Assembly (NCBI GenBank): GCA_977020255.1
Contig: CDROCS010006758.1
Coordinates: 1-57,627 of the forward strand
Direction: 5' to 3'
Length of the DNA stretch: 57,627 bases
From: Obrimoposthia wandeli
Lineage: Eukaryota
Shown here: one piece after another, positions 8,147-41,857 of the stretch
Layout: every line of letters begins with the position of its first letter
Numbering within the stretch: the stretch's first letter is position 1
Notes under the pieces: generated by a model
What the model was told of the DNA's origin: nothing
What the model saw: the letters and a program-made list of their open reading frames with translations, nothing else
Database searches by the model: none
Translations under genes and position numbers: made by a program

Positions 8147-8938
8147 TCAGGCCTCAAAAATGTAATCTTGTGTTTCATACTCGCCAATGAGATCCATATA
8201 AGCCACAACTTTAGCTCCCTCTGACCAAGATCCACCGTTGGGTACATACGTTATCACAGGATTCACTTTGGTGGAGAGATCATATTCGCAGTGTTCATAA
8301 CTCGATATGGTGGCCAGGAAGCCAATATCATCTTTACACTTCAAACCGGAGACCTTCATCAGGAATCTGCGATGGACATTTTCAATTCCGGCTAAACTAA
8401 ACTCATCATAGGTAGTCATTTTAATTACTCTAGCACTCCAGGGAAAGCTGAACACGACATTGGTTTTGTTGAACCAGGATACTGTGGAGGCAACCGGTGG
8501 CACAGAGAACTTCAAGAAGGCCAAGACTTTACCGGGTACATCGTACAGGTTCACCCGGATCCCGGATGGCTTCAGCTGGTCCCAGTCGTTCAGCAGTGAA
8601 TGGCGGTAGTTGCCATAATTAGTCAGCATGGGTGAGCCTGACATCCAGAACTCGTACGGATCAGCACCTCCGCCAGTCTTAATAGTGAGCAGCTTGATAT
8701 TAGAACCCATTGAGCGGTACAGTTGAACTGCGCTGTCAGTACGGTCTCGGTGGAACTTGTCACTACTAATCAGACATTTGCCTGACCTGAGCATGAACCT
8801 TTTAGAGCGTTTTGAGTAGGCGTAACCCGCACAAGTAACAAGCTTCGAGCAGTGACAACGAAAATCTGTAAGCAGCAAAAAAAGGACAAGCAAAATGAGA
8901 CACAATTGCATTTTCACTTGCTGAGCTAAACTGACCAT
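8147..8938 (-). CDS. Single-exon 263 aa putative secreted protein, copy 1
   Basis: Intact ORF; hydrophobic N-terminal stretch LCLILLVLFLLL; Cys-containing; visibly GC-richer than flanks; open in both copies. Confidence 0.75.
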   Translation of the reverse strand: MVSLAQQVKMQLCLILLVLFLLLTDFRCHCSKLVTCAGYAYSKRSKRFMLRSGKCLISSDKFHRDRTDSAVQLYRSMGSNIKLLTIKTGGGADPYEFWMSGSPMLTNYGNYRHSLLNDWDQLKPSGIRVNLYDVPGKVLAFLKFSVPPVASTVSWFNKTNVVFSFPWSARVIKMTTYDEFSLAGIENVHRRFLMKVSGLKCKDDIGFLATISSYEHCEYDLSTKVNPVITYVPNGGSWSEGAKVVAYMDLIGEYETQDYIFEA

Positions 8939-9689
8939 GTTTGTGGTTGTTATTTTAGTATTGTTTATAATGTATATTTGTTGTTACCAAACAATGCTCG
9001 TCATCTGTCATCAAAATGTTGTTTGTACTGTAAACATACAGTAGGATGTGGAATATCTATTAAACAGTTTAGGGCATATTTTTAAAAATGAAAAAAAAAA
9101 AGCATTTTAAAATGAAAAGGTTTTTAATAACCAATAAAATAAATAATCATCTAAGCCTGTAATTAAGTAAATAGCATTCATATGCGGTGAACTGCGACAG
9201 GCTAACACCAGGAAAATTAGAGAGTCAAAATCGAGTCAGGAAGAAAGAAAAAATAAAAGTGCAGAGTTAAAGAAGTTAAATTTGGCTTAGTTTGAAGGTA
9301 GGCGCTGGGGTAGCAGCCAGAGTGGTGGTGGACAGGATTGCACAGACACCAGCTATGGAATCGATGACTCCAATCAAAAATTTCAGGTAGCGTCGAAACA
9401 TGTCATTATTTGGCTCCCACGGACTAAGCAGCTCACCAAGTTCATAGTGCCGTAGAAAAACGGAGGAGCTAATTAATCTTGGGTGACCTCTAACTCTATT
9501 ACTAGTAAAATCCCCTAAATAACCACAACAATGGTGGGTTTTAGCAGAGAATACATAATGGGAACTACCTACCTTACAGATCAGAAAATTTTAGCAGATT
9601 TAGCAGCTATTCCGATGTTTTAATTTTGATAAGAAGCAGTGTCGACAGCCAACAATTTAGAAGTGGAAATTACGGAAAGTTGAAGACTC

Positions 9690-13480: not shown

Positions 13481-13523
13481 GAGGGTAGAGGGTACTGTGC
13501 CCGAATCGACACATCTACCTACT
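13481..13523. other. Second AGTAGGT-type element terminus
   Basis: ...ACACATCTACCTACT abuts and truncates the retroelement ORF at 13524; copy 2 ends at 50992. Confidence 0.45.
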
Positions 13524-15900
13524 ATACACATTCATTTTCTCAAACATAACTTCTTCATTGATTAATTTGATTAAAATATATATTGTCTCCTTTTGGTTTG
13601 CTCTTTGTATACAACGACCATATCCTTTTAATAATCCTCGCGCTGCACGTCTGCATGTCAGGTTTTCATAACTGTGTTTAACCAATTCTGTTCGCAATAC
13701 TCCTAATTTTTGTGATTTAACTTTTTCTAACTTTATAAAAACTTCCGGAGCTTTGCTTGCTTCATCCAGAGATTGACTCAATATTTCTTTAGCTTCACTA
13801 AGTATTTCGTTGACATTTTCGATACTATTTGTGTTTATTGCTGTATCTATGTGATCAGTCATAGGTTGTGCATTACAACTCTTTTTCATGAGTGTTTTGT
13901 ACGCTTCTAATATTCGATTCATAAAATCATTAATCTCTTCTGTAGTGTGATGTTTTTTTACCTTAACGTGATAACATAGATTAATTCGATATCTTTGTGT
14001 GGGTGAGTTCTCAATTATTCTCAACATTTGTTCAAATTTATGGTAATTATATTCAAAATATATTTCATGTCTAAGTTCTATCTCACGCTTTCTATCATTT
14101 ATGTAACTAAAATTTCCTTTTGGTTTCGATTAACTTTTACGACTATTCGAATTTTCAACATTATTATTATATCTTCCTGAATTATTGTATCTCTCGGCTA
14201 CGTGCTGTATATCTGTATAATTATTATATCTTCCTGGTGACTGTTGTCTATCCATATACTGATTATTCGTTCTCCATTATGGTGGAGTATACCTGCCACC
14301 TATATTCCATGATGAGGATGAGTTATATCCTCTGTAATTACTATTACCAAATTCTTTTCATCTTGTACAATTGCTTGCGTAATGATCCATTTGTTTACAT
14401 ATATAATGCTGCATTTTTCTCGAATATCTAGCTTATTCTGTTTATCTTTGAACTGCACTCGACGACTATTCTGTATATTTTCATATCGTCCTCTAAAATC
14501 ATTTATTTGGAAATTGGATTCATAAGAAATTGGATTATTGAATTTTCTATCTCTATCTCCTGAATTATTTCTCAATCGAGAGTCATTTCGCTCTCCTCTG
14601 TTCACACTATTATTCCGATCATCTCCTCTCCAGTTAAGGCCATTTCCTGAATTGTTTATTATCGAATTTAATGTTTCTTTGATCATAAAATTCCCTGTTA
14701 TTCTCTGTTCTTCTATTTATCGAATAATTTTAATTTATATTACTCGAATAATATATCTCAAATCATCTCTATTTCTACTTCTGAAATGATATCTATTTCC
14801 GTTAATAAATTCATATCTTTTCTCAAATCTATTTATATCTTTGAAATCGTATTGTCCATAATTTTAACTTTGAAAAGTATTTGGTTCTGTCGTACTCACA
14901 AACACTCTTGTCTTATTATCATAATTTGTCGTAACTGCGTAAATCGCTAATGCTGCATGTTTCAAAATATTATTCTCAATTTCTCTCGCTTTTCGTACGG
15001 CTTTATCAAAATCATTTGTATCTAATACTGCTAATAACACTTTAATATCCTTGTTCAGTCCACTTCTTAATATATCTAGCAAAACTTCTGCAATTTCGCA
15101 TTCATTCCGATTATCTCCTGCTAATTGTACTTATGCAGCTACAGGTTCGCCTGCATGATTTCTCAATATTTTTCTTGGATGCGCTCGTGCTGCAAAGTTC
15201 TCAAAATATACGCGTATTCATTCACGCTTTCATCATGTTTATGTTTCCGTTCTCTCAAATTTCGTTATTCACTTTCACTAAATCTCCCAATACCAATTTT
15301 CCTATAAAAGCATTTTCCAATGTTTCCAATTTTCACGTTCTGCTTCTGTCATATGTTTATAAACCTCGAGTGCTAATCCTGTCAAATGTGCTTGTACGCG
15401 GACATATGTTTCTATATCGTTTCATCCTTAAACATCTGCGCAACTTCTTCAATATTCTTCGATAAAGTCATAAATACTTTCCTCATCTCCTTTAAACTTC
15501 ACGATCTGCAGTGAGCCTGTAAATTTGGGTCTCAACGTCGCATTCAAAACTTGTGTTAACTGTTCCACATTCATATTACCTGGATTTGCCATATTCTCCT
15601 TAATTACCTTTTCAATATTATTCAAATTAATATCCTCAATCTCTTCTGGAATACGATTTCAATTTCTTCTTGATTTACTTCAATATCTTCTTGACTCACT
15701 TCGCCGATTAAGTAAGTCAAATCAAAACTGTCGGTTGAAACTGCTGACCGATTTATGTCTCTAATAATACTGTTTCTTCGGCTCTAAATTCTTCTGTAAC
15801 TTCTTTATCTGCACGAGGAACCTGTTCAACTTGGCTCTGTCTGTTATTGTTTATATCTTCTCGAGAAAACTGTTCAACTTGACTTTGTCTTCTAGTATTA
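13524..15900 (-). pseudogene. Ty3/Gypsy-like gag plus downstream unknown ORF (element A)
   Basis: Manual translation gives KFKGDEESIYDFIEEY, LTGLALEVY...WKTLENAF and ILRSGLNKDIK...FDKAVRKAREIE (retrotransposon capsid-like), an R/N-rich segment, then the 170 aa ORF at 13515-14027. Confidence 0.7.
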
Positions 15901-16317
15901 AACGCGGGTCATCCTTGATTATCCGTTATCTTATCAAATACGAATTTATTTATCTCTTTACAATTTCGATTCTCTAATTTCTTTTATCTCTTACATCTCG
16001 ATTACTCAACTATTATTTTACAAACTATTATATCAATTTATCCGCTTCGAGGAACCTATTCAACTTAATTTTTCACCTTATTCAATTTATCTATTCAAGG
16101 AAGTTATTCGCCTCGATTAACGTATTGATTCTCTTATTAATTCTCTTATTTTCTATTCAATTCTCTTATTATATCTCTTATTCAATTTTTATTTTCAAGT
16201 AAATTATTCTCCATTCGCTTATATACTCTTATTCTCTTATTCTTCTTAATTTCTTCTAAAACTTCTTCTCAAATTATCTCTCTATTCTATCTGAATTCAC
16301 TGTGTCTGACGAGCTAT

Positions 16318-16334
16318 CCTCATTTGGGGTACCA
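16318..16334 (-). promoter_or_regulatory. Primer-binding site of element A (TGGTACCCCAAATGAGG)
   Basis: TGG-initiated, between LTR-like sequence and the gag leader; TGGTACCCCA is complementary to a ...UGGGGUACCA tRNA 3' end such as tRNA-Arg(CCU) (inference). Copy 2 is at 53789-53805. Confidence 0.55.
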
Positions 16335-16342: not shown

Positions 16343-17645
16343 TGTTGGGGTTTCTCCGGAGACCCCCAATCTGAGTTCTGTAGCGATAGGGTTTACAGAC
16401 GTACGTGGCCTACCTATTCTAATTTTCTAAAGGTTTGTCTCACTTATCTGAAGGTTTCTATTTGTGTTATGTTATTTTGTGTTGTGTATGGAGATTATGT
16501 TCAATATAACTAGAGGGACCCTAAAACTATTGTGGTGTGGTGTGAGGCTGATGTATTGAGTCGGTTAATCTAATTATGATTTTATTTCAAACAAGGGTCT
16601 GATACAATCAAGACCAAAATTAAGCAAATGAAGCCAGAACCAAGCAACGCTAACGACGACCCTCTGAATATATCATGATCTGAGTCATCATCATGTGGTT
16701 AGCTCTCAGCTGGCTTTTACATTAGTGAATCCGAAGATGCTGTGAGGCTGCTTATTTCTAAAACACAATTCGTGAGATTACTCTAAAATACTAATTTTAT
16801 TCCTTAATACACCAGAGTGGAGATTGCTTAAAACAATTAGGTTACTGCTAAAACTCCAAGGGAAATAGGGCGACACTCTAACCGGTATTTTATTAGTTTA
16901 ATTAGAAAATATTATTCCAATCTACTTCTTTTCAAAATACGTTTCCTTACTAAATTTCTAATGTCAATGTAACTTTTACACGTCTTTTTACACAATAGCT
17001 TAGCTTTCAATAGCTTTGACTAATACACGAATTACACTGAATTTAATTTATCCGTTCGTCTATCTCTTGTTACTTGTACTGCGTTTACTCTGGTGCGATT
17101 GAAACTCTTTACTGTGATCTATATCTTATTGCTTGTTTCCGAATTCGCCTTGTATTCGTTTTGCTATTTTTAAATTATTGACAAAATTGTTTATTTTTAC
17201 GCTTAAAGTTTTAGTGTGCTGAATTGGAACGTGTGCTGAATCGGAATGTCAATATGGTCGGGTTGCTTATGGTCAGTGTTACTGTAGGCCAGATGTTCGG
17301 AATTATTCGAAATAGATTTCTGCTATCAGTTTCTGACTCCTTCAAACCTGAATTCCGCTGTCGGAATGCACAATTCTAAATATAGAATTTTTCTGAAACT
17401 GAACTTTTTTGTAATTTAATGACTTCGAATTTCCAAAGCCTTTTTGTAAAATTTTTTGTTTATTAAATACACATTTTATGACCTCTTCAAGGTCTCAATT
17501 TACTCAATATTATATATCATAAATTTATTTTCAATTTAATTCTAATTTAACCTTGTTTGTTTTTTTACATTTTACAAATTTTCCTAATCTAACAATATTA
17601 CAGATAACTTAACTACAGCAGTTAAATAACAAATGATAGCAGTAA
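16343..17645 (-). mobile_element. LTR of element A
   Basis: Upstream of PBS and gag; the reverse complement of 16350-16400 matches 21515-21555, and that of 17478-17496 matches 20145-20163. Confidence 0.6.
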
Positions 17646-17649
17646 ATAT

Positions 17650-18770
17650 GATGGCTAAAAGCCAGTGATATCATGTATCAGTTGACAGATTTTACGAGGG
17701 AGGGAGTATTGCGAGATTATTGGGAAGTCAGCCCCCAAGTAAGAAAATAGTCATAGCGACTACATGTTTATGTCTTCAGTTAACAGAAAGGACAAGTAAA
17801 CCGAAAGAAATCAAACAAGGAATAAATGAGGAAATGTTTCTGATTGAAAAATATTTCAACAACGTATCGACAAAAACGGAAGATGGATAAAATTGAGTTA
17901 TTATGCTTAAACATTTATAGAAGTAACCTAAGTCGACGGTGAACAAATTCATTAAAATTGTGACAAAACGAATAAACAGTGTAGTGAAATTGAAAAAAAA
18001 TAATCAACCTAACAATGACGAGGATGATGTTAGTTACGTTTATGGGAATGCAACATCTCATGAGCAGTGGTAGCGTATAATTGCAGACTACCAAAGATGG
18101 GACAGAAGTACTCAATACTTGACAGTGAAGATTGACCAGAATCACAACCCCCGAAATTGACAGTAGTAGGTATAGCAAATTATTTTGTTTATCAAGAAGT
18201 CGATAAATTACAAGTTGAAGTAAGAGAATATATAATTCACCTAAGTTATCAAGAGTTCTACTGTGGATAAAGAAGTACACAATATATTCTTAGAGATTGT
18301 GCGGAGGAGTTTAGAACAGGAAGAATACTAATAGATAAAGAATATCAACATGTAGCTAAAGTTGTTATACGCCGATATGAAGTAGTTACGAGAATAGGAA
18401 GACGATGGGATAATGGGGCTTGCATCGAAAAAGCTAGATATGTATGCGGTACATTTGTTCATTAATTGGTACTATATACATTGTACGAAATAGAATTGAA
18501 GACAAGCACAGCTAGTTTTGATATAACTATGAAACGAATTTTGAAATAGCCAGAATGTAAAGCGTCAGGTATGTATTTTCATACAGGCAACTCCACAATA
18601 GAGAAACCCGAGAAAAGTTTCTTTAGTACTATAAAAGTGAAATGTAATAAAAAAAAGAGTTATATAATAAAGGATGTACGGGATTTCATGACACAACATG
18701 AGCAATGCTGATATCACCCACACTACTAATGGTGACATTAGCTGAAGATGTAAAAAAGGATAATAAGGTA
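17650..18770 (+). pseudogene. 5' fragment of chuvirus/gB-like envelope gene
   Basis: Nucleotide-homologous to 23390-24500 (e.g. aaacaaggaataaa...atgtttctgattgaaaa; agttctactgtggata). Confidence 0.65.
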
Positions 18771-18774: not shown

Positions 18775-18813
<39 letters not shown>

Positions 18814-18897
18814 TGACGTAATCAGTGCAAACTAATCACTTGCAGTTACTAGGGGATTCCTCGTTCATGTGGAAAAATTGCAATCCACAATTCCTGA
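18773..18897 (-). pseudogene. 18S rRNA 3'-region fragment (~125 nt)
   Basis: Reverse complement contains the universal TTGTACACACCGCCCGTCGCTACTACCGATTGAA; flanks are not rRNA. Confidence 0.92.
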
Positions 18898-19129
18898 TAT
18901 GGCAGTGTTTAAAGTCAGTACTACAAACTTTGGTAACGCAAGGGACAACATTTTTTGAGTGTACATGGAAGTTGAAAACGTGAATCCTAAACAAATTTAT
19001 TTACTTCTAATGGTTGACAAAAAATAAAAATATATTAAACTAAATGATACGAACAATCACTATATACTGACATAGGGTATGTACAAATGTATTTATTTCA
19101 CAATAGAAACATTTGATTAAAACGATTTT

Positions 19130-19979: not shown

Positions 19980-21590
19980 TACTAAGTAGAATTGCATTAA
20001 AAAAATCAAACTGTTAAGATTAGGAACTTATAGAATTAAAAAAATGACTATAAAATAAGAAAAAAGTAAAAACCTTGAATTAAAGGTTAAACAAAATAAA
20101 TTAAAATTAAAATAAAAATTAATAAAATTAAAATAAAAATGGTTAGGACCTTGAAGAGGCCATGTGCGTTGTGTGGTATATATAGGACAGTTAATTAATT
20201 AACGAGGCACAAAGAAGGAGTTAGATAGACAAAAAAGCAGAAACAAGTGAAAAAGGAAAAATCGAGAAAGTTCAATTAATTATGGAGTGTGAGAAAAAGT
20301 CCGTCTGGCCATCAGTCCCAGACGTCTCCTGCAAAGAAATATACAAGTATCTCATATAGAAAAAAAGCATACGAGGATCTCAGAAGAGGAAAGTGCCATA
20401 TGTGAATCATCGTCACTGTAAGTACGTTAAGTGGCACTAATTGACTTTCTGTTTTTTTTAAAAGTATAAAAGTATATCAGACGGGAAAAGTGTATAATCG
20501 CCAATTTAGTATTACTGCGAAAAGGAAAAGTGTATAATCGCCAATTTAGTATTACTGCGAAAAATAAAAGTGTGCAAGCGGCGGATCAGTGTTGCTGCGG
20601 AAAATACTCAAGTAAGCAACGAGTTTCAGACAGAATTCCCATAATCCAATAAACTACTTTAGCAGAGATACCGGCACGATAGAAACAAATCAGATCGGTT
20701 AAAACTGAGGAGAAGCCGAGACAAGAAACTTAGATCATGAATCTCGACAGAAGAGAAACCAGGACTTTGTGGACCTATCGGAAGATTTATCGACCTGATA
20801 GAGAGAGGTGAAAGGTTGTGAGAAAAAGAAAGGACATTGTAATTTGTAATTTTGATCGTTTTAATATCGTTAAATATAATATTCACACACGTGAATTTGA
20901 ATAGGAATTTTAATCGTTTTAAGATCGTTAAATCTGTTATTCACACAGGTGAATTATAACTTTGAATTTGAGTTTGTTCGTTTTTAAGGGAACGCTGAAT
21001 TGATCGTTTTAAGGGATAGTTGAGTTAGTTACACACACCCGAACAAACTCCGTTGGAAAAGTGAGGCTGTTTTGATAAACACGTAGCTTGATACCCCAAT
21101 TTAAGTAAGAAGACAGAGTAAAGTCAATTCGGAAACTTGAACCTAAGAGACGTAAAAAAGTGAACCTCTAAAATCACTAGGCCGAATTAAAATCAATACA
21201 TTAGGTTAAAGTCATCCTTGTTTACCGTATGTCGAGGCGAGTGTAATAAGACCAGTTATTGTCAACTGTAGAACCTTTTCTTTAGCTAGGTGTGAATTAA
21301 TATAGTTTTTTCCTACAAGTCAAGTAAAGTTATTTCGGTTAATCCCATATGGAAATAGAACGATACGAATCTCTCTACACACAACACTACATTAGCGGAA
21401 ACTCTTCTGGTGCATTGTGAACACAAATCTTTACACACCCTGCAACACATTAGAACAAGAAACCCTCAGAATTGAGGCTAAATAAAATAAACCCAAAGAA
21501 TATGCCCCATCCTTCTGTAAGCCCTATTGCTACAGAACTCACGTTGGGGACCTCCATAAGAGGATCTAGTTTCGAATAGAAAAAACTATT
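19980..21590 (+). mobile_element. LTR of element B
   Basis: Same conserved motifs as LTR A in the opposite orientation; TATA-like GGTATATATAGG at ~20176; precedes ORFs homologous to element A. Confidence 0.6.
20484..20563 (+). repeat. Perfect 40 bp tandem duplication inside LTR B
   Basis: GGAAAAGTGTATAATCGCCAATTTAGTATTACTGCGAAAA x2. Confidence 0.9.
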
Positions 21591-22059
21591 AAAGCCTGGT
21601 CCAGTATCTAATGTACGATTGATGTCAAAAATTATATACTCCTATATTGAATATAGATACTAGTGAAGAAATGCAATCTTTCATTTTATTTATTTTATGC
21701 GGTTATATCCACTTCTGGATAGACGCACTAAGTCCTCAAAGAGAAGCATAAAATGACTCTCTTATGCTATGTAAATGGAGAAAATCGTATCGTTTAAATA
21801 ATAATATGAATAATCTTATAAATACTGCAAATAAAAATATTCAAAATGCGTACCAATTTTATATTTATGTAGTCCAAAATGTTCCAGCAGTAAATGATGC
21901 AACAAAAAGAGCCTTATATAAATATAAAAAAGCTATTTTGAAATCTAAAATTGAAGATAAAATACAAAAAATGGTATGCCTGATGTAAATATAAACATAT
22001 TATATATTTTTTCTTTTCTTTCCATTGTTCTATTGTTCATTGTGAAATAGATTTGAAGA

Positions 22060-22560
22060 TAATGATAATAAATTTTAACGAATGTTGGGAATAATTGGGA
22101 ACTCACACACACAAAGATAACGAATTCATCTACATTAGCACGTAAGGGTAAAAACACCACAGCAGAGAAGAGTTTAATGATTTGATGAATAGAATACTAG
22201 AAGCGTGTGAAACAACTATGGAAAACATGTAGAAACAGTGATAAATTCAGACAGTATAAAAGATGTAAACAAAATATTTAGTGAAGCTGAAAAGTACTGG
22301 GCCAGCATCTGAACAAAGTAAGTGAAGCTCCGGAAATCTTAAAAATTTACAAAAAGTTAATTCACACAAATTGGGAGAATTGCGAACATAATTGATTAAA
22401 AACAGTCACGATAACGTGATATATAGACATTTAACGCTTGAATTATTTAAAATGATATGGTCGTTATGTACAGAAAACAAACCAAAAGAAGATCACAAAT
22501 ATTTTAGTCAGATTAATTAATGGAAACCTTTTACTCGAGAAACTTAATGTATACCAGACA
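22060..22560 (+). pseudogene. Diverged homolog of the element A 170 aa ORF
   Basis: gaatgttgggaataattgggaactcacacacacaaagat matches aaatgttgagaataattgagaactcacccacacaaagat; shared SEAPE...KLG.LRT.L.K.S motif. Confidence 0.7.
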
Positions 22561-23389
22561 ATAAAGACTATTCGAAAGAGGGTAGCACAGAAAACTGGGA
22601 TAGACGGAATGAATTTGCTATTTCATTTCGACAGAAGATCGTTAGACGATGAGGACATACCAGTTGAGTACAGATATCCAATAGAAAACGAATCAGAGGA
22701 AAATATTATTCACTAGAAACGCTAAAATTACATATAGATATTAGGCTGAACCGAACCAGAGTGTAAATAATGATATAAAAGAAGTCTGGAACCGAACGTC
22801 CACACCTAAGGAAGACTACAATGGACCATAAATCAATAAACGAGATACAAGTTATTAGACCGACAGGGCATGATCAAGTTATGAATGCAGCCGAACAAGT
22901 TAGAGAAGATGAAGTATCGGAGATTGTAGGTCTAAATTCACCAAATTGGCATGTTGCATCAAGAGATACACAAGCTGATCAGACAGTACGACAAAGCGAA
23001 GAAATACAATATAACAATGTATCGTAATATCAAACAGATTATCAAACGGAGAATTAATACTTATGAAGAGGACGAGGAAGACCTAGAAAAGATGAGAGTG
23101 CACTCTGAAACATTTTGTCTGCACCTCAGACTAAGGAAGAGAAACACTACTGTATTGTACAGTTGGCAGCATCATTAAAACAGTACAGCGCAGTGCAAAA
23201 TGAAAAGTAAGAGTTAATTCGAATTTGGATGTTTCGAGAAATAAGAAAATAATTATATTTATTATCAGGCAGGGAAAGCCGAAGTTGTTGAAAATGTACA
23301 AAGATGAAACCACTGGTATTACAGACAATTTGACTAAAGCAGTTAGGTCACAAATGTCAGCAATAAAAAGAAAGATTGCGAATCAATGA

Positions 23390-25500
23390 TATCATGTATC
23401 AGTAGACAATTTATACGATGACGAAGTTATTGCAAGATTGATGGGAACTCAACCCACTAGTAAAAATTAATTACAGCGATTACATATTTATATTTTTAAT
23501 TAACAGAAAGTACGAGTCGACCTAATGAAGTCAAACAAGGAATAAACGAAGCAATGTTTCTGATTGAAAATGTATTACAATAATGTATCAATAAGAACGG
23601 AGAATGGATAAAACTGAATGATTATGCTAAAACATTTATAGAAGCTACTGAAGATGATGACGAACAAATTCATGAGAATCGTCAAAGAGAAAAAAACCCA
23701 ATACCATTCGAGAGACAGAACTAGTCATATGAATATATCTACAACGATGATAATGATGATGTCAGTCATGTTTATGGGACGAAAACATTCACCAGCACTG
23801 GTATCACACGATTGTAGCGTACTAAAGATGGAACAGAGGTATTCATTGCTTGACCAGAATCACAACCCTCAAAATGAACAATATAAGGTATAGAGATTTA
23901 TTTCAATTACCAGGAAGTCAATAGAGTACAAGTACAAGTAAGAGAGTGTTCTGTTCAACTGAGTTATCACGAGTTCTACTGTGGATACAGAAGTTTCTTA
24001 TCAGAAAAAAATACCTACTAAACCTTTTAAACCAACGTTCTTCAAAAATATTTTGAAGATGCGTTTCGAACAGGAAAAATACGAATAGATAAGAAATACG
24101 AACCCGAAGCCAAAATTGGTGTACGACGTTATGAAACAGTTACAAGAATAGAACAACGGTGAGATACTAGACCTTATTACGGAAAAGCAAGAGTCGTAAA
24201 AGTGGATTCTTTGGTATTAGATGCGAGTTACCAGATTTAACTGAAGACATAGACCGCCAGTTTTAATATAACTACGAAACACATTATGAAATATTCAGTG
24301 TAAAATGACTGACACATCTTAACACAATAATATATTAGGCAGACCAGCGAAAATGTTCTTTAATATTGCTAAAAAATCAAATTTAATATAGTAAAAGGTT
24401 TTCTGTATAATAAAGCAGGCGAAGGATTTGATAACATAACAGGATCGATTCACAAAACACCGACATCTACACTATTAATGGTGACATCAGCTGAAGAAAG
24501 ATTGAAATTTATTTAAGAAAAGAAAATAAGTCGCTATGTGGAATGACAATTTGTACTACAAACTATACTGGAATAGAACTAATAGTGATGGCTAGAGCTA
24601 AATTAGGTCGAAAGAAAATTATGTTACACACATATTTTAACAACAAAATCGACTTTTATTATCACAAAGATTAATACAAATGGAACAACTATATCAAATG
24701 ATGGTTGAAAGAAATTGTAAGTTAAATAAAGAGATAATAAGAACTCAGTTGGCACTAGCTATTACGAATCCAGACATGGTAGCGCCATGATTACCTTTAG
24801 ACGAAGGAGTATTTACTAAAACCATGGGAAAAATACTGTACACTTACAAGTGTAAAAACGTATAGGTACAATTAAAAACAGTCAGATAGATATACGAGTG
24901 AATTACCCGTAAAGTATAACTTAAAATATTATTTTGTAGAACCAATAAGAAGAATGATCCTTCCTAAACACACTTCAATTAAAGAATTCAATTGCTCTAA
25001 TATAATGGCACTTAAGTATTAACTTCTAAGCGGTCTATGGATAACATTGCCTGACTGTAAACCAACAGAGACTCCAAAAATGATAAAAATTACAACACTA
25101 ATTGGAAAGATGGAGTTCGAAGCTGTATAGAATGTTAAAAAGGCAGATTTATATAATAAGATGGACCTAAAGGCGGCCAGAAACGAAATAACTTTTCCAG
25201 TAAGAAAGACCAGGATACTCACGGAAATAGTGCATCGTACAATTTCTCCAATAGCCACATGTGCAAATTTTGATATAATTTTATCAGCGCGTCACTTCAA
25301 AGAAGCGGCACATCAAAAAATTAGGAAAATGTGGTGAAAATTCCTCATTTTAGAACAGTTATTCTCAGGTATAATAAGAATTTATGTCATAATTAAATTT
25401 GTACAAATAATTATAACTCAGGTATTGTTCACATATAGTTTATCATCTGGCAGCTTATAATAGGATGTTTTCCATTTTTAGAAAAGTATCTAATGCACCA
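23390..25500 (+). pseudogene. Chuvirus-type (gB-like, class III) envelope glycoprotein, decayed
   Basis: Manual translation: VQVQVRECSVQLSYHEFYCG; QLALAITNPDMVAP*LPLDEGVFTKTMGKILYTYKCKNV; SELPVKY..YFVEPIRR; LYNKMDLKAARNEITFP; C-terminal hydrophobic segment at ~25330-25470. Confidence 0.7.
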
Positions 25501-26192
25501 TCCTCACGAGAATGAATTGAGCCATCAGAAAGTAGCAACACCTAGCTAGAACTGTATCACGAGAACCAAGACATAGACAAGATTTTGATGACGATGATAA
25601 CGATGGTCGTGGAGACTTTTTCAAGATACCAAATATGGTATATGCAAAGATTCCACTGCAAAATAAAGAATATTCAGTACCAAACATATACCCAACAAAT
25701 GAACTGAATGAAGAAAAATATGTACAAAAGAAGAATTCTGATGATAAGAAGGCAGCGGAACCAAAGGAGATTAAAGATAATTCCTAAAGAATTCTGAAGG
25801 CAACAATATCTAACGAGAATTTAAATGCTCCTAGACAGAATGCTGTAGATCGTCCAACAACTTTGGTGGAAGCAGCAAGAAAACCGAACATTATCTTTGA
25901 AAATTTCAAGGCTGCCATCAAACGCCCGGGGAATCCTCGCTCCAGACTCTGACGAGGACCTCTTCGAAGAACCGACGGCAAATGATACAAGTTTCATACC
26001 GCCGACACAGGAGTAGGATCTGACTTCTTTAATTGACGAATACGACGACGTGACTCCGGTTCTTACATGCGATACTGTTGCTCGACAAACCAGCGACTGT
26101 ATTAGGGTAAACTTTGACGAGGAGAAAGATCTCACTCCTTTCTTCGACGAGTGACTACTCCAAGTCTCCCTGTAAGTAACAGCGCTCCAGCC

Positions 26193-27099
26193 ATGAACAA
26201 CTCAATCGTCGCCGAGTTGGACGAAGATGAGTGACGTTTGTTCACAGACGAATGGAATGGTCTTATCCCTTCTGCTACTCTGTCTCCTACTGCAAACGAT
26301 ACAATGTCTAAAGTATTCCAAAGGCCACAGACTCCATTGAGACGAGGCAGGAGAATAAAAGCAACGAATGAGATTGGATAATTTAATTAATTTATTTTTA
26401 TTTTTATATAGAAACTTCAACTGAATATTCAGTGACTTCAGTGAAAAGACAGCTGGAACCTGAGATCATCGAAAGTCAATGCAGCCAGGAGTTGCCAAGG
26501 ACTCAACTGCGATATCTGTTATCCTTCGATAATATTCGGGTAAATTATTTTGAAAAATATAATTAATTATTGACTTAAGAACCCGAGCAGGTAGAGGACG
26601 TGTTGGAAGAGGCGTCTCTTATATTACCGGTGGACCGGAAACAAGCAGTTGTGCAGAAGAGACACAAGATAACGCTGAAAATCGTCAGAAGGAAGAAGGT
26701 GAAACAGACGAAAATACCTATAATAGAGGTACATTTTTAATATTAAAAATATATATATTTTTAATGCAGGAACCAGATAAGGTGCAGCTACTGGAAAACT
26801 GGTTGGGAAAATCTACTCCTATTCCTTCAAGGTGCAAGCAGCAGGCAATGGGGCACAAGAAGAAGAGGAGGAAGGTGACGGAGTTTATCGAAGCGGCGAT
26901 TGAAAAGCAGGAGATTCTACCATATCCGGTTGATGATGGGCCGATCTTGTACGAGAGGATACCCGTTGCTCCGACCAGGATAACTCCTCCTCCTAGCCAG
27001 TGTCGTCTGCAGAAGACATTGCTGAATAACTTTACTCCGTCACCACCACCGGTTATTCAGCAGTCATTAAGCATCAGTAAAAACTTGGTGAGAGTTTGA
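26193..27099 (+). pseudogene. Decayed 4-exon gene of unknown function (K/R- and Pro-rich)
   Basis: GC-richer exons split by AT-rich GT-AG introns at 26540-26579 and 26729-26769, plus a donor-mutated intron at ~26377-26411; exon 3 splices in frame to exon 4 (IIE|EPDK). Confidence 0.5.
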
Positions 27100-27143
27100 G
27101 AGGCTGCATCTCCTCTTCCTGTGGCATTCACAAGCCAAAAAAT

Positions 27144-27928
27144 GGGCTAGATCCATGCATTTCTATAGTTTACCTGGTCTTTCATGGGCAACGGCAATAA
27201 AAACTCTTTAGATTAATGTCAAGTTACTGCAAGATCCGGTGACGTATAAAAGGTATGATTATGGTATACGGGGTGGATTGACTTTCGTCAACAAACATCA
27301 TCTTGTAAAGTATCAATCCACGGAGATTCTGTACATCAACATTAATAATTTGTATGGATGGGCACTTACTAAACCTCTACAACATGCCAACTTAAAGTGG
27401 TTGTATGATATGGAAGAGTTGAATAAGTTGATGATAGATTTGCTTACTGTTGATACAGTTTCATCAAATGTCGGCTATTTGATTGAGGTCTATTTAAAAA
27501 TCCCTCCCAATCTGCATGATAAATTAGATGATCTTCCAGTAACACCTTTTCATCAATGTCCACCTAATTCAAAGGTTAAGAAATTATTGTTGACAAGTTG
27601 AATTATGTGGTGCAATAGGTGGCTTCTTCAAATCTATGTAAAGTTAGAACCAAAAGTCACTTGTATTCATCGTGCTATAAGATTTAGTCAAAACTTTGTG
27701 TTTAAAGACTATATTGAGAAGAATTCTATAAAACGTTATTTGACCACTAGCAAATTTGATCGGGATTTTTACAAGTTAAAATTTAATGGTCTCTTTGGAA
27801 AAACTTTAGAGGACTTGCAGAAACATATTTGTATACGGTTTTGCAATGACGGGCGTAAACTAACGACATATACTAGCAAGTACAACTTCAAGCGATGTTT
27901 TACAATTACAGAGGATTATATAATATAA
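27144..27928 (+). pseudogene. Protein-primed DNA polymerase B, middle fragment
   Basis: GLDP..FYSLPGLSW, GIRGG, motif A ILYININNLYGWAL (catalytic D appears as N), motif B KLKFNGLFGK; internal TGA and frameshifts. Confidence 0.9.
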
Positions 27929-28597
27929 TTTGAGGATTAATTTGGTTTAACCACACAGAAACACACAAGAGGTTAAAGTTACATGTATCAATTAATTTTG
28001 ATATTGTGATATATAAATGACAAACCATGGTATACCGTTAAGTAGAAGGCAAAGGATGTTTTCCCAGTAACTTACTAAAATAAAAAAACATTATTAAATA
28101 GGTATTCAAAAAGTTATTTCAACTTTTAATGGGAAATAAATATATTTAAGTAAAAGAAAAGATCGAGATAAATTATTTGTATCGAAATAACTATTTAAAA
28201 GCAGTATATGGCTCTTAAATCGCATTGGGATTTTATTAAGAAATTTTAAATTATTTTTTAAATAACAAGTTAAGTTTCTGAAAATGAAATTTCTTAAATT
28301 TTTTTAACATATGGTAACAAATAACGATAAAATAAAATAACGATTAGTTTTAAAATCATTACATACACTTTTGTACACATAAATTGTGTTTGGATAAAAT
28401 TAAACAATTTCAAATTGATACTTTCATTTATTTTCAATATATTACACAATAACGTAAAAGTCAATTTATTAAATTGTGAGCCAATTAAATTGAAGTAGAA
28501 ATTACAAACTCACAATTTCTTTTCTTGCGTCATCAAAAAGTGGACAATATAAAAGAAAATTGGAAATTTTAAAATTATTCAACAGTAAAACTCAGAA

Positions 28598-28978
28598 ATG
28601 GCAATTGGAGGAAAGATTTCAGCAAAGTCAGCAAAGAAGATAAGCAGCAGCGCTGTAGCCAAGCCTGCTGGTGAGAAGAAGGTGAGGCGCGCCAAGAGAA
28701 AGGAGTCATATGCCATCTACATTTACAAGGTGCTGAAGCAGGTCCACCCTGACACCGGTGTTTCCGGCAAGGCCATGTCCATCATGAACTCGTTTGTCAA
28801 TGACGTGTTTGAGCGCATCGCTACCGAAGCCGCCAAGCTGGCCCAGATCAACAAGAAGTCCACTATCAGCAGCCGAGAAATTCAGACCGCTGTGAGACTC
28901 ATTCTGCCTGGAGAGCTGGCCAAGCACGCCGTCAGCGAGGGTACCAAGGCTGTCACAAAGTACACTGGTTCCAAGTGA
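28598..28978 (+). CDS. H2B: Histone H2B, replication-dependent type
   Basis: Intact intronless 126 aa ORF with [19 protein letters not shown]...[30 protein letters not shown]; CCAAT and TATA-like motifs upstream. Confidence 0.98.
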
Positions 28979-34440: not shown

Positions 34441-34550
34441 ACAGTAAATTAATAACAAGTAAGCAACTATAAGAAGCAGTGATATTGAAGAATGTTAAAA
34501 ATTAGAACGACTAAGTTATGGCAAGATTAATAGAAAACAACACTAAGTAG

Positions 34551-35202
34551 TTTTACAATTGCAGATGACTTGGTAGCAATGTTATTAGGAAAACAGTGTA
34601 TTTGTCTCGATTGACCGAGTTATATAGGTCAAACGGTTTTAGACATTTCTAAACTCAGAATGTACGAGCTTCAATACATAGAATTGGAGAAATATCGACG
34701 AAAATTCAATTGTGAGATCAAAATCGCAGCTGGGGACACTGACTCTTTCTTTTTAGAATGTAAAAATGTTAGTTTAAATAATCAATTATTACCGGCAATG
34801 TTTAGGGACAACTTATTAGATACCCATAAATATCCCGCTAACCATCCTCTACACTCTATGAGTTTAAAGGATATTATCGGGAAATTTAAGGATGAAAGCG
34901 AGGGACAGGTTTTGTATGATGATTTTATTTTCCTACGCCCTAAATGCTACAGTTTACATGCATCTAATAATACATGTTCAATGAGAGCAAAGGGTGTGGG
35001 AAGAAACAATCTTACACATGAGGCCTACCGGAAAGTTTATGATACTGTGTGTATTGAAAGCGTTGAGCAAACTAGATTTATTTCAAGAGCCCATCAACTG
35101 TATTCCCATAAATCAACAAAAAACGCTTTGAGTAGTAATGACGACAAGCGCTTTTGGGTAGAAAAGAACGCTAGCCTGGCTTATGGATACTTCCGAATTT
35201 AA
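34551..35202 (+). pseudogene. pPolB C-terminal fragment
   Basis: FTIADDLVAM...PSYIGQTVLDISKLRMY, motif C GDTDS, GKFKDE, LRPKCY, RAKGV, NDDKR. Confidence 0.92.
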
Positions 35203-35427
35203 ACGGTTTTGATTTTTTGATTTTTTTAGTTTAGTTTTTTAAAATTTTAGATCCCTATGGCACCTTGACTCTAACTTTTTGTTATTTCAAAACATTTTAT
35301 AGGATGGACCTTATCTTTGCTGACAGATCTCATTGTGATGTTGTTTTTAATAAATGTATTAAAAAAAATTTCGTCTTATGTCTTTTAATATTTTATCCTT
35401 ATATATTTAGGGATTTAAAAAAATAAT

Positions 35428-35847
35428 TCAAAATAAAACATTTAATTTTTTTATTTTTATGACACACTTATCATTTTGCAACGATAACCATAAAATACAT
35501 AAATGTCCACAGTTTCTCGTCACAGGATCCTGATATTGTATCTTGTTGTAAAATACTCTTCTTCGTCCTTTTTGAATAGTTGAAACAAGTTTGTGTGGAT
35601 AATACATTGCAAGTGGATCAAATACATGTATTGTCCACTCTCTAACATAAATAGCTATCCAATGTTCTCCTGGTAAATTCGAAGTATGAGTATTGATAAT
35701 GTATCCTCCAGATTGAAAAAATGGAATCATATCAATAGGATAAACTCCATTGAATTTATCACCCAAGACCTTCTCTGCTGATTCTTGTACTTGTACTGAA
35801 CTAAATAAAAATTAATAAATATAAATTTAAAAAATGTCTTACTTCAT
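35428..35847 (-). CDS. Adenain-like cysteine protease, spliced (exons 35847-35843 and 35800-35428)
   Basis: The 42 nt GTAAGA...TTTAG intron gives MNSVQVQESAEKVLGDKFNGVYPID; catalytic GEHW, FDP and Q...CG motifs present. Confidence 0.88.
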
Positions 35848-35848
35848 T

Positions 35849-37076
35849 CTATAATATGACAGTTATGTTTTTATTGATTTGTATTTCGGAATCAAACACT
35901 CCGTAAATAAGCACCGTAGTAGGATGTGTTAAAGCTGCATTGAATTTAATTTCTAGTCGTAAATTTCCATCCTTTGGTAGTTGGCATTGGTTTATATCAA
36001 AGTCAGGTGCCAAAACAAATGTGAAGAAGGGGCAGCTGCTTTTAAACTCAGTGAAAGAAATACCATTGTTTATATTTTTATCTAGTTGGCCCAAATTTCG
36101 AATAATAGATTGCGTATAAGCCAAAGCATAAGCGTTACCTTCGAAGTCTGTTTTATATGTTTCGCGATAATCATTATTTCTTGAAAGTGTCACTGAACCT
36201 ACATTATGATTGTCAAATTGAGTTGCATCTGTCGTATAATTTCTTAGATACTTTGCAGTTTTTTGAAAAGAAATTAAAATGAATTTCGGTAATCTTACAT
36301 TACCAAAAATTTGATCCTTATTAAAAGCTTGTGTACCCGTACCTAAAGAATAGGATATAAGTTTAGTTTCTCTAATAGGATAACAAGCATTGTTTTTTCC
36401 ATTCCTATATTATGTGCCATTAAAACTGATTGCTCGGTTTTAACTCTTCGGACATACAATTTTGGATCCAAAATATAAAGTCTAGGTTTTAGAAAGTCTG
36501 TGCTTATCAAAGAAAAATTCCTTTATTACGTTTCAAACGAAGATGTACATTAACACCGGGAATTAAATATTTCGGTTGTTCAAAGAAATTCAATCTCAAA
36601 GACCCACACATTTCGTAAGCTTTAGAACCTGCAATCCATTCTTTGTGAGTTGCGACCGTTTTATCATAACCAATGGTTGCCAAATTAGTATTTTGAGTAT
36701 CAGTACTATAATTCAAAAGACTTTCAATCAAAGCTTTATGAGCATAGGAAGAATATTCACCTTCAATTTTGACATTATTAAGAGTAACAATGGCATCACT
36801 AAATAAAAAATTAAAGAGATAATTTACAGGTGTTACATCTGCATTTTCATCTAAATTAGTACCATCCCGATTTAATACTTTTATTTGAACATAAAGCAAA
36901 GTATCATTCATATCTAAATACTCGCTATTGGAACCATTAATATTAAATTCTAAATCGGTTAAAGTGGTTCCTGAAACTGAGTTAACTAGAAATATTTCTT
37001 CAAAGGAAGCATTATCTACAACTACTTGTGGAAGCGGTTTATCAAAAATACACAATTCAGTTTTGGCGCAACTCAT
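35849..37076 (-). pseudogene. Major capsid protein (double jelly-roll/hexon-like), disrupted
   Basis: MSCAKTELCIFD..PQ, LEFNING...YLD, G.LRLEIKF..AL; frameshift near 36520 and an in-frame TAG near 36485. Confidence 0.88.
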
Positions 37077-37450
37077 TTTGGAAATATTGTTCCTTCAACT
37101 TTCTTACGTTTGTTTATATTGATTTTTTGCTTCTTTTTACTTTTAAATCCACTACCTCCTTGGCTTTTATTTGATTTACGTTTTCTAATCAAATTAGCAA
37201 CTTCAGGTAAAACATTATCAAGTTCATCAAGCGCATGCTTCTTAAAAGTTGGTATTAGTTTATTGTCATTAGATGAAAGGTAATCCTTTCCTAATTTTGA
37301 TATAAATCGCCCGAGTCTCTTTAAAAGAGGAAAGGCAAATCTACCTAATGTTCTAAGCCAGCCAGATCCATATTGTTTACCAACAAAATATGGTAATTCT
37401 CCACCTTGTTGGCTTTGACTATAAGCTTCAATTATTGCTGGATTCGCCAT
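37073..37450 (-). CDS. Basic Gly-rich virion core/cement-like protein (125 aa)
   Basis: QQGG..YFVGKQYGSG, an amphipathic WLRTLGRFAFPLLKRLGRFISK helix and a K-rich tail; stop overlaps the MCP start (ATGA). Confidence 0.8.
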   Translation of the reverse strand: MANPAIIEAYSQSQQGGELPYFVGKQYGSGWLRTLGRFAFPLLKRLGRFISKLGKDYLSSNDNKLIPTFKKHALDELDNVLPEVANLIRKRKSNKSQGGSGFKSKKKQKININKRKKVEGTIFPK

Positions 37451-38492
37451 TTTGTTTTCTTAAATGTATTGTTAAACTTGTCTTGGCTCCGTACGTGAAA
37501 TCTATTAGTTTTCCGGAATCATCTCTAATATTTACTTCAATAATGTTTATAGAAAAGAGAGAAACTGGAAGATACATTGGTTGATCTATACACATACCGA
37601 CAGCGTCCCCATCTCTAGTTTCATTTTTAGATATCCATATTGTTTTCAAAAGTGGAATTCTCTGTCCTCCTACAAGCGTTGGTTCTATTAAATTAGTATA
37701 AATATATAAATGATTAACAGCATTTAAAAGTTTTGCCTTATTTTTAGCTTTTATGGTTTTTATTGTATGGGTTTCAAAGGTATTTCTGTTTAAACCAAGG
37801 TTTTTAGCGAGTTTATCATCAAATAAAACTCGTATTATATTGCTCTTTACTGTAAACGTTATTTTACCATTTTTTAATGTTACACATTTATCGAAATATT
37901 CACTACATTCCTTCTGTATTAATTTACAGAAATTCACTTCACTATCTAATTTATAATCTTTTGAAAATAATTTCAGTTCCACTACATACTTTGGTCTCGT
38001 TTCAACTAAAAACACTTTTGTTACTCTATCAGGAACATTTTTAAACGATTTAGATGAGGCTATATCAGATCTCTTCATACCTACTACATGTTTACTGTCA
38101 AAACCGAATTGAAGAGCTTCTCTATCAGATCCAAATATAATTTGAATAGGTTTTAAAAAATGTTTTAGTCTATTTTTAAATCTGACTTTGTTTTTTTCAT
38201 ATATTACTTTCACTTCTTTATCTATACAATTGTAAAAGAATTTTCCTTTACTATCAAACCCAATCACAACTTCGAATGATTTTTCATGATCAACTTCTTT
38301 TGTAAACGAAATATGTGAGTTTTTTCTGATAGTAATTGGAGAATAATAAAAGGAAAATTCTGTTAAAGCAGCTTCCCATTCTCCTTGGAGATTTATAGGA
38401 TTTTCCCAATCGATAATAAAGCTACTAGCGTAATTATCTGGTTGAGTCTTCGGACATCCGTTACTAGGTAAAACCAAATACATAGACTTCAT
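37428..38492 (-). CDS. Minor capsid protein (penton-like, 354 aa)
   Basis: N-terminal YLVLPSN...DN..SSF...PI.L.GEWEAAL and C-terminal LYIYTNLIEP..VG..R.PLL...IEVNIRDDSG..IDF motifs. Confidence 0.88.
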   Translation of the reverse strand: MKSMYLVLPSNGCPKTQPDNYASSFIIDWENPINLQGEWEAALTEFSFYYSPITIRKNSHISFTKEVDHEKSFEVVIGFDSKGKFFYNCIDKEVKVIYEKNKVRFKNRLKHFLKPIQIIFGSDREALQFGFDSKHVVGMKRSDIASSKSFKNVPDRVTKVFLVETRPKYVVELKLFSKDYKLDSEVNFCKLIQKECSEYFDKCVTLKNGKITFTVKSNIIRVLFDDKLAKNLGLNRNTFETHTIKTIKAKNKAKLLNAVNHLYIYTNLIEPTLVGGQRIPLLKTIWISKNETRDGDAVGMCIDQPMYLPVSLFSINIIEVNIRDDSGKLIDFTYGAKTSLTIHLRKQNGESSNN

Positions 38493-39517
38493 ATTATATT
38501 AGATGCTGATATCCAAGTTGGATCTGAATAACCATGCCATTTAACATAGTATTGTTTATGTTTACCGGCACCCTTAGATTTTAATATTTTTTGAATACGG
38601 AAAACGCTAGGTTTATTTGATATTACTTGTAGTTCTTGCTCGTAAAATTTACCGTGAACGATATTATTGTCAGCATCTTTAATAGTACATATTATTGGAT
38701 TACTCTTTTGATCAATTTTACTTATACAAAATATTTAATCGCTCCAATTCTGATCAAAGTTTTTAATAAATGGAGTAGAGCTAATTTTCGAAATTCGGAC
38801 ATATTCGTTTTTCTTATATTTAGCTTTTATAATATTTTCTTTTTTATTCCTGTTCATCCAAATATTCATATAATTTTTATTAGTAACATCAACAGGTCTC
38901 ATTCCCATGAGACCTCTATGTTCCGAGTGATTATAGGCATGTATTATTTTAGGTAAAACTTGGATCCATTTTTTATTTCCTTCTTTTGTGAAATACTTTT
39001 TTATTCGATCTCTTAAAGTACGATTAAATCTTTCTACTACTGCTGCTTTATACTGTGAAAACACAGAGTAGTGATTTATATTATTTTGTTTAAATAAAGA
39101 TTGAACTTGCTTATTATAAAATTCTTTTCCTAAATCAGTTTGCACATTTTGTGGAATGTCCTCTTTTAATATTTCTTTAATGGCTTCAAGCATAGCTATT
39201 GAAGACTTTGCTTTAACTGGAATTGCACGAGCAAACCTGCTAAATACATCAATAAATGTTAAAATATATCGATATCCCTTATTAATGGAAGAATATGGGA
39301 TCATCTCCATCAAATCCATTTGCCATAAATTACTAGGACCGCTGATTTTGTAAGCTCTAGTTGGAAACCTTCTTCTCATCGGCCTGTTCAGACTGTAGGC
39401 TAACTGGTTGCTCTGCCATTTCTGCGTTTTCTTGTATTTTTGTTTTGTTCTTTTTGCTAATTTTGAAACTCCGGTGTAGCCAATTGGATCTTTTGGGTTG
39501 AACCATATCTTCTCCAT
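38489..39517 (-). pseudogene. Polinton DDE integrase with chromodomain-like C-terminus; frameshifted near 38740-38700
   Basis: WQMD, QTDLGKEF, AAVVERFNRTL; out-of-frame tail QYYVKWHGY...WI. Confidence 0.9.
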
Positions 39518-39603
39518 TACAACAATTTGAATAGAAAGATAATTTAAATTTAGGTAAATAAGGGTTAGCACCCATATCTTTAACTGATTTTATAAATAAT
39601 TGT

Positions 39604-39934
39604 TTATGAACGTGTCGCAGCTATAATACTACTGATAATTGAAGCAACAACTGGAATAACAGCCCCTATGAAACCACCATTCTGTTTAAGAATAATATTT
39701 CGTTTCCTTTTTTTACTTTTTACATTAGCAATATCTAGAAGAGTTTTTCTATATTTCTTTAATATATTTTTTCCGATTTCCAACTTTTACTCGACCCAAA
39801 ACTATATTATAAAAAACTTCCAATAAATCATCTACAACAAAAGATGGAAATGCTTTAAGAATAATCATTCTCTTATGAGAAGAGGCTTTGACTAAAGCTT
39901 TAAAATAGGGTATGCTTCTTTGTATTTTCTTCAT
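39604..39934 (-). pseudogene. Basic QNGGF core-like protein; one homopolymer frameshift
   Basis: MKKIQRSIPYFKAL... joins ...KSKKRKRNIILKQNGGFIGAVIPVVASIISSIIAATRS*. Confidence 0.7.
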
Positions 39935-39971
39935 TTTAATAGAAAAGGTTTAATTTAAATATTGTTTATAT

Positions 39972-40105
39972 TCAAAGCCATTTAAGTTTTTTTTTATTTC
40001 TAACTACAGATTTGATTAATTTTTTCACTTCTTTTTTCTTAATGATTCTTTTTTTGATTTCTTAGGCTTTGCTTTACGTTTTACTATCAACTTCTTAAAA
40101 TGCAT
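39972..40105 (-). pseudogene. Very small Lys-rich ORF
   Basis: MHFKKLIVKRKAKPKKSKK...KLKWL*, requiring one homopolymer frameshift. Confidence 0.4.
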
Positions 40106-40112
40106 TATAAAT

Positions 40113-40760: not shown

Positions 40761-40798
40761 TGCATATACTCTTTCATTTTATAATATTGTTTATATTA

Positions 40799-41080
40799 TC
40801 ATAGAAGTTTCCTTATTGAAATGTACAATGTTAGAGCTATTGTAGATGAAATACAAAAATTAATTAATGAATATTTGGCTATAATTTTATTTATTTGTGT
40901 ACGATTTCTAAATTCTCGAATAACGTGTGATCTAACCAATATTTCAATGTTATCTCTTGTTATCTCTTGTTATATCATTATTTTTAATTCTGATAAAATT
41001 TCTTTACCCCTAATTTTTCCAGAAAATATTTCGTCGGCAAGCCGATCCACTTCATTGTCTCTATTTATAGTATTATTCAT
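40799..41080 (-). pseudogene. ~93 aa ORF with C-terminal hydrophobic helix and one internal TAA
   Basis: MNNTINRDNEVDRLADEIF...IMI*QEITRD...YSLINFCISSTIALTLYISIRKLL*. Confidence 0.4.
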
Positions 41081-41108
41081 TTGAAACAATAAGTTTAAAC
41101 GGGTTTGT

Positions 41109-41608: not shown

Positions 41609-41857
41609 TAGACTAAAATTGTATTCTATAAAATCTTCTTTATATATGTCTGAACCTGCTTTTTTATTGAACGTTTCTTGTAATTATCTTGCAAACCTAT
41701 TATAATTGGATGATATATTTCTTCCAATCATATTTGATTTTTAATATGGATTTAGTCCAATAAAATTCAATGCTTTAGTTATATTAACCAATGAGATTCA
41801 TGTCTTTGTTACAAATTAGTATAAAAGAATGCGTCATTGGAGGACAAATCATTGTAA

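Follow-up and report, generated by a model that had tools for sequence, protein, structure and literature searches.

A broken envelope gene with a predicted class III fold, very probably from an old Ty3/gypsy copy of Burro-type layout, in Obrimoposthia wandeli

Results

Organization of the locus

The window analysed here is the whole of a 57,627-nucleotide stretch of O. wandeli DNA (assembly GCA_977020255.1, contig CDROCS010006758.1), in which a sequence-only reading had proposed a fusion glycoprotein gene at 23390–25500. The copy that carries this region, element B, begins with a 5′ LTR (20012–21580, + strand) that has the TGTTA(A)G start of its family and whose two ends match the LTR ends of full copies at 70–83% over short stretches; it lacks the conserved 3′ end motif, and a search of the window on the + strand found no primer-binding site (PBS). 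The LTR is followed by an unassigned stretch of ~460 bases (21582–22042) in the place expected for the PBS and the first two-thirds of gag; among 21 fetched loci, this stretch matches the duplicate locus C3924 only. Next comes a remnant of the region past the gag zinc knuckle, including a putative ubiquitin-like domain (22043–22810, +; tblastn match to residues 667–951 of an open family frame); this is the ORF said to be shared with a neighbouring element A, and the two indeed have a common region (13525–14067 versus 22043–22553, 73% identity). Further downstream, all on the + strand, lie a Bcl-2-like domain remnant (23207–23640), in frame with env in better-kept copies; a Met-rich hydrophobic segment (23729–23800) that is likely the internal signal sequence of env and would be cleaved, a hydropathy peak being present at the matching segment in a family frame; a decayed gB/chuvirus-type env ectodomain (23801–25337), its fold taken from a stop-free family copy; and a hydrophobic segment (25338–25415) predicted to be the transmembrane anchor, the sole segment above 1.7 in hydropathy in a 3020-aa family frame. 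The env tail and a linker (25416–25847, +) end the element with neither pol nor 3′ LTR after them, and no match to protease, BIR, RT, RNase H, integrase or phosphatase was found in window 1–37491. Element B is truncated by another multi-copy repeat (25860–27130; at least 49 genome matches from 40 candidates scored), which extends to Polinton-like DNA at 27136.

The proposed region does hold an env remnant, although its first ~340 bases are the end of the Bcl-2-like domain and a linker, with env running from near 23729. The motifs on which the proposal was based are all present on the + strand and in the order given (~23944–25200), namely ECSVQLSYHEFYCG at ~23944, LALAITNPD at 24749 with EGVFTKTMGKILYTYKC directly after it, ELPVKY..YFVEP at ~24900 and LYNKMDL..ARNEITFP at ~25149, and the C-terminal hydrophobic segment follows. 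They do not, however, form the single decayed frame of ~700 codons that had been described, as they are distributed over all three frames; alignment with an open family frame over 484 codons reveals 11 stops and 9 frameshifts in the ectodomain, and the anchor–tail part has 3 stops and 4 frameshifts. The Pfam profile PF24664 (Monjiviricetes_fusion) matched three of five scanned pieces (E 6e-05, 1e-08 and 5.4e-23), with no match for two middle pieces of the window env, nor for the one piece of a second copy. Element B, having lost its PBS, most of gag, pol and the 3′ LTR and carrying many stops and frameshifts, is a dead copy. The missing pol and second LTR could suggest an endogenous viral element standing alone, or a fusogen domesticated by the host, that happens to lie near LTRs, but the probability of this is close to nil: element B is collinear with full elements from LTR through gag remnant, Bcl-2-like domain and env to tail, the copy is full of stops and frameshifts, and full-length copies with env inside the element refute it.

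The second, diverged copy of the 5′ half of env that had been noticed upstream is likewise real. It belongs to element D (17595–18748, +), a separate and older family member comprising the end of the Bcl-2-like domain, the signal segment and the first half of env, and it aligns with the window env at 68.5% identity (17596–18748 versus 23317–24497, E 3e-126); its dS to the family copy C5558 is 1.37, versus 0.91 for element B. Element D has a second copy (55081–56232, +) within a 20-kb direct duplication (1–20164 equals 37492–57625, 97%). This duplication and the near-identical locus copies C3924 and C1876 reflect either segmental duplication or uncollapsed haplotypes; C3924 and C1876 were rejected as new insertions, as at 96–99% identity they look like duplicates of the window locus.

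Element A lies on the − strand, with an LTR (16343–17594) whose terminal TG abuts the first base of D homology, a degenerate tRNA-Met PBS (16317–16334) that differs from the family site at 3 of 18 bases, and a truncated gag (13482–15953; tblastn to residues 4–844 of the open family frame, 50–56% identity in the long pieces). The PBS attributed to this family is present in element A and in family copies elsewhere, but not in element B, which has lost both the LTR end and the PBS. Most likely, element A inserted into D in opposite orientation and both were cut later. We prefer a nested insertion since the LTR of A ends exactly at its junction with D, the other junction having been lost. On the family map, the point where A stops lies within ~900 bases of the point where D starts, so that 17595–18748 was also considered as the inverted env of element A itself; the exact LTR end at the junction disfavours this. 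An incomplete third LTR of the same family occupies 5876–7140 (−). Across these LTRs (5876–7140, 16343–17594 and 20012–21580) and those of other copies, only the ends are common, and the middles vary in length and sequence even between copies with close coding regions.

The window also holds unrelated features. Just past element D, 18783–18905 is what we take to be a decayed piece resembling the reversed 3′ end of 18S rRNA; as rRNA it falls under the Rfam threshold, and Rfam and ARAGORN found nothing over the window. Polinton/Maverick-like genes occupy 27136–27930 and 34547–41711, with Pfam matches to an rve integrase (E 2.9e-12) and an A32-type ATPase (E 1e-05), and polymerase, protease and capsid-like ORFs there were recognised by eye. 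An apparently intact histone H2B gene sits amid repeats at 28598–28978 (+), its best full-length relatives being ~80% identical, and a 278-aa open frame with a signal-peptide-like start is present at 8147–8983 (−) and 45571–46407 (−), with no Pfam match below E 0.1.

The family in the genome

In the 1.35-Gb genome of the species itself, a DNA search gave at least 47 matches (40 scored candidates, most at 72–79% identity) and a stop-free env used as protein query yielded at least 76 scored matches, 30 of the 76 without an internal stop; these counts are lower bounds, not copy numbers, and they bear out the assignment of the gene to a multi-member family. We fetched the surroundings of 21 copies, picked as top matches or for long open frames. 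Better-kept copies have the order LTR, PBS, gag with one CCHC knuckle, ubiquitin-like domain, Bcl-2-like domain and env, then a protease-like domain, BIR, RING, protease, RT, RNase H and integrase, and finally dual-specificity phosphatase in two stretches, a number of membrane segments, small RING-like pieces and the LTR. Judged by its pol order (PR–RT–RNase H–integrase), the family is Ty3/gypsy. Env is in frame with its neighbours on both sides in copies C3263 (an open frame of 3020 aa, CCHC–env–BIR–RING–PR–RT–RNase H) and C1974 (2914 aa, gag–env–BIR–RING–PR), and a further long open frame occurs in C3351 (2271 aa, integrase–phosphatase–tail). None of the fetched copies has the whole polyprotein open; a single chain of ~5,400 residues is what the overlapping open frames of different copies would add up to.

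Complete elements measure 22.6, 23.8 and 24.2 kb (C2227, ~21.6 kb), and C5558 and C956 are internally deleted 14-kb copies with matching LTRs. Both ends were found in five of the nine copies examined for them, and four of these five are recent insertions with a 4-bp target duplication and LTR pairs that differ by 0.5–1.6% substitutions; the fifth, C3263, lacks a target duplication and its two LTRs are unlike each other (16.2%). A PBS was found by pattern in seven of the nine; over 19 bases it matches a host tRNA-Met gene at its 3′ end, and it is offset by 8 bases from the LTR end in C5558, C956, C3351 and C3473. Full-length copies with paired LTRs and pol thus place env inside an LTR-bounded element with gag and a PBS, as had been proposed. 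In C5558, C956, C3351 and C3473, what precedes the 3′ LTR is no plain run of purines. The tRNA-Met gene matched by the PBS occurs in tandem arrays, such as that at C2252:200–11858 with a period of ~284 bases.

Several domains were scored in individual family copies. BIR (PF00653, E 2.9e-12) and RING (E 1.4e-11) form an IAP-like pair that in C5558 (L018:1–5838) is flanked by two aspartic-protease-like domains, the first directly downstream of the env tail and the second ahead of RT. Dual-specificity phosphatase follows integrase in frame as two stretches (PF00782, E 1.8e-39; L058:2–4360 (−) in C3351 and L008:8669–9586 in C2227), and the catalytic motif of the first stretch in C3351 looks intact; a narrow literature search gave no account of phosphatase cargo in such elements, which does not imply its absence from print. 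The ubiquitin-like domain falls below the cut-off (PF00240, E 0.0047), and the Bcl-2-like domain is weak (Pfam Bcl-2, E 0.062). A model of the 166 residues upstream of env (pLDDT 63) retrieved Bcl-2 family proteins in all Foldseek rows listed, the best at E 0.038 and none below E 0.001, and a protein atlas search with the stretch upstream of env gave no usable match. The family frames scanned had no match to MATH or ankyrin, and the ~200-aa stretch between PR and RT, where Burro has a dUTPase-like domain, has no Pfam dUTPase match, a comparison to be read with the use of HHpred in the Burro paper. A sequencing-run search for env returned no RNA dataset among those listed.

The DNA has ~30% GC. 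The cox1 copy C109, of the commonest mitochondrial-like class, has AAA at four of five scored conserved Asn columns and ATA at five Ile and no Met columns; the code with AAA as Asn and ATA as Ile is that of rhabditophoran flatworms, and also of echinoderms. Together with the GC content and the Burro-like layout, this makes a flatworm host most likely and a planarian likely. The assembly is contaminated, with many stop-free bacterial-type cox1 and one cox1 (C5352) in the general invertebrate code.

Predicted fold of Env and selection on it

The env of C5558 matches PF24664 with E 1.7e-91 over model positions 4–632 of 653. An AlphaFold model of the stop-free family env C180, built with 104 relatives, has a pLDDT of 93.0 and a pTM of 0.74 as a monomer, and displays long strands and, after them, a central helix of 48 residues. 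In a structure search, the PDB rows listed were all herpesvirus gB (best E 2.4e-13, TM ~0.4), and the best viral rows were chuvirus-like glycoproteins (E 8.5e-41). A single-sequence PDB search gave nothing relevant, and a profile search gave weak matches to gB only (best E 0.019). Taken together with the Pfam matches, the family env is predicted to fold as a class III fusogen of the gB/chuvirus type, in agreement with the glycoprotein class first suggested from the motifs.

Env is under purifying selection: dN/dS of the ectodomain is 0.15–0.27 in 16 of 16 comparisons with C5558, about as in the BIR–RING region and above the protease, and for the window copy (dS 0.91) it is 0.19. Conservation among copies extends over the whole ectodomain and includes its set of cysteines. 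Stops in env would be selected against whatever its role, because env shares a frame with pol; the low dN/dS would not be explained by that alone.

Two versions of the predicted env domains I–II

Comparison of 15 copies revealed a ~250-codon block that splits ten otherwise close copies into two sets, 69–78% identical inside the block and mostly 85–97% identical outside it. The block covers env residues ~34–290, the strand-rich part ahead of the central helix, which on the model we take to be domains I–II, i.e. the fusion-loop domain and its neighbour. One version is carried by C5558, C2227, C5489, C323, C25, C180 and C956, and the other by C649, C1542, C1633, C1472, C1427, C3263, C1974, C3351 and C3473; overall, versions ~74% identical sit on backbones 91–97% identical. 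In trees of the two flanks the ten copies form one clade (100/100 and 100/98), which the block rejects (AU p 3e-22); there, five of the ten cluster with two older copies, an arrangement that the flanks in turn reject (p 4e-123 and 0.0003), and as the block and the groups were picked after viewing the identities, these p-values flatter the contrast. Six further copies follow the same pattern: against C3263, two of the new copies are 73.5–73.7% identical in the block and 90.9–97.8% elsewhere (protease–RT, 97.3%), and three others are 95–99.7% identical throughout. The 76 env protein matches fall into 19 at 80–83% identity and 57 at 87–100%, with none between.

Between versions, dN/dS in the block is 0.18. 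Positive selection in the swapped block, which we considered, is not seen; the block is under purifying selection, and therefore old versions were exchanged rather than one part having changed fast. As judged from these comparisons, the presence of both domain I–II versions on such similar backbones reflects a recombination swap. The block of the window copy groups with neither set. Narrow literature look-ups gave no account of a domain I–II swap or of env ectodomain recombination among subfamilies, which does not imply that none exists.

Discussion

The region 23390–25500 is, with high probability, the broken Bcl-2-like and env part of an old, deleted Ty3/gypsy copy with the layout of the planarian Burro elements. 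The sequence-only reading had gone further in proposing a candidate new lineage that had captured its env independently. The first part of that proposal is superseded, as enveloped gB-type LTR elements in planarians have been in print since 2019: according to the accessible text of PMC6431247, Burro/GYPSM1 has a polyprotein of 4,873–5,140 aa with gag, ubiquitin-like, BCL2-like and BIR domains and an env between BCL2 and protease that matches mononegavirus fusion glycoproteins; the paper presents it as the first env located in frame between gag and pol. Such elements are catalogued again among flatworm errantiviruses in PMC13524379, the accessible part of which lists nine HSV/gB-type elements for Platyhelminthes, six of them from S. 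mediterranea, and describes elements of Platyhelminthes, Nematoda and Bryozoa as having only HSV/gB-type env in GAG-ENV-POL order.

As to the second part, this flatworm family might be suspected of having captured a chuvirus glycoprotein independently, given the best viral structural matches, which are chuvirus-like, and stand-alone proteins of ~650 aa that match env at 21–29% identity. However, a search for homologues of near env length found none: relatives of env are longer polyproteins, and the closest of those listed (30–43%) are the env regions of long polyproteins, mostly with protease or RT, three of which also have a Bcl-2-like stretch upstream of env. We built an env tree of 53 regions, namely two family copies and 51 of 150 listed matches, taken from the best 68 ranks and leaving out most short fragments and all ranks beyond 68; in this quick tree, which carries long-branch warnings, both family copies group with 15 env–protease/pol polyprotein rows against 36 stand-alone proteins (SH-aLRT 99). 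Since env nests among env–pol polyproteins, a fresh capture by the family is very improbable. PMC13524379, in its accessible text, argues for ancient inheritance of such env elements; it also reports that the pol tree does not unite the GAG-ENV-POL elements in a single clade, which would allow several deep origins of the layout.

As for the role of env in the active family, we consider it probable that it serves as the fusion protein of enveloped particles. An RNA started in the LTR would be translated into one polyprotein of ~5,400 residues, of which the gag, ubiquitin-like and Bcl-2-like parts would remain cytosolic, while the internal signal sequence would thread the ectodomain into the ER; the one membrane anchor would then stop transfer, so that protease, BIR–RING, RT, RNase H and integrase would again lie on the cytosolic side. 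The chain would be cleaved by signal peptidase and by the aspartic protease(s) of the element, host tRNA-Met would prime reverse transcription, and env, as a trimer, would enable fusion of particles with other cells. The window copy performs none of these steps now.

Env might instead be a membrane anchor or structural part that localises particle assembly, with spread remaining intracellular and cell entry playing no part. Env has no R-x-K/R-R furin site, the accessible text of PMC13524379 states the entry mechanism of gB-type elements as open, and the internally deleted 14-kb copies with matching LTRs are also in keeping with such a role. Yet the furin site, by the same text, is not always conserved in this type of env, and an anchor would need neither a whole ectodomain conserved with its cysteines at a dN/dS near 0.2 nor two maintained versions of domains I–II. 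We therefore consider the anchor role unlikely, and retain the fusion protein as our reading of env.

The family would circulate with at least two interchangeable versions of domains I–II on one near-identical backbone, the window copy having a third, and it is conceivable, though we put it forward tentatively, that they are variants in entry or interference; the envelope subgroups of vertebrate retroviruses offer a comparison. Were it true, it would show at the population level that the env of a gB-type retrotransposon serves cell entry in a flatworm, and env would be under diversifying pressure from receptors or silencing. Recombination of env within species has been suggested in general terms in the accessible part of PMC13524379, and the domain I–II swap appears to be a concrete case of it within a host. 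The family is a large and recent example with many stop-free env genes, usable for the question of whether the env of gB-type errantiviruses mediates infection, for which the swap provides a natural contrast. The suggestion to look for expression in stem cells is touched by PMC8532177, in the accessible text of which BURRO1 is expressed in differentiated cells after PIWI loss.

Among known systems, Burro of the Dugesiidae, as described in the accessible text of PMC6431247, resembles the family in its giant polyprotein of ~5,000 or more residues, with gag, a ubiquitin-like domain that in the family is putative, a BCL2-like domain that in the family is a weak but consistent match, env in frame ahead of the protease, BIR, the order PR–RT–RNase H–integrase and long LTRs. 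The two differ in length (22.6–24.2 kb in the family versus more than 30 kb), in CCHC knuckles (one versus two or three) and in MATH and ankyrin domains, present in Burro and without a match in the family; a second protease-like domain after env and the two phosphatase stretches after integrase are found in the family and unlisted for Burro in that text. The family therefore appears Burro-like, by comparison with a description of layout, and because of the differences in size, knuckle number and MATH/ankyrin we do not file it as Burro1–4.

The glycoproteins of chuviruses/Monjiviricetes and herpesvirus gB share with the family env a class III fold, as modelled, and its cysteine frame, whereas identity is ~20% to chuvirus G and 10–13% to gB, and the family env is internal to a retroelement polyprotein. 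Mosquito BEL/Pao elements with a chuvirus-like glycoprotein also carry this glycoprotein family in an LTR element (PMC13524379, accessible text), but belong to another LTR superfamily and host, and the family has env upstream of PR–RT–RNase H–integrase. In the same text, Smed_errantivirus_1-6 (cysteine class C1a) agree with the family in gene order, env type and host phylum, and by eye the eight cysteines of domains I–II and the TNY before the central helix agree with the Platyhelminthes C1a rows; that text reports no PBS for the six Smed elements, whereas in the family a tRNA-Met site lies 8 bases beyond the LTR. By the operational definition in the accessible part of PMC13524379, the family is a GAG-ENV-POL errantivirus.
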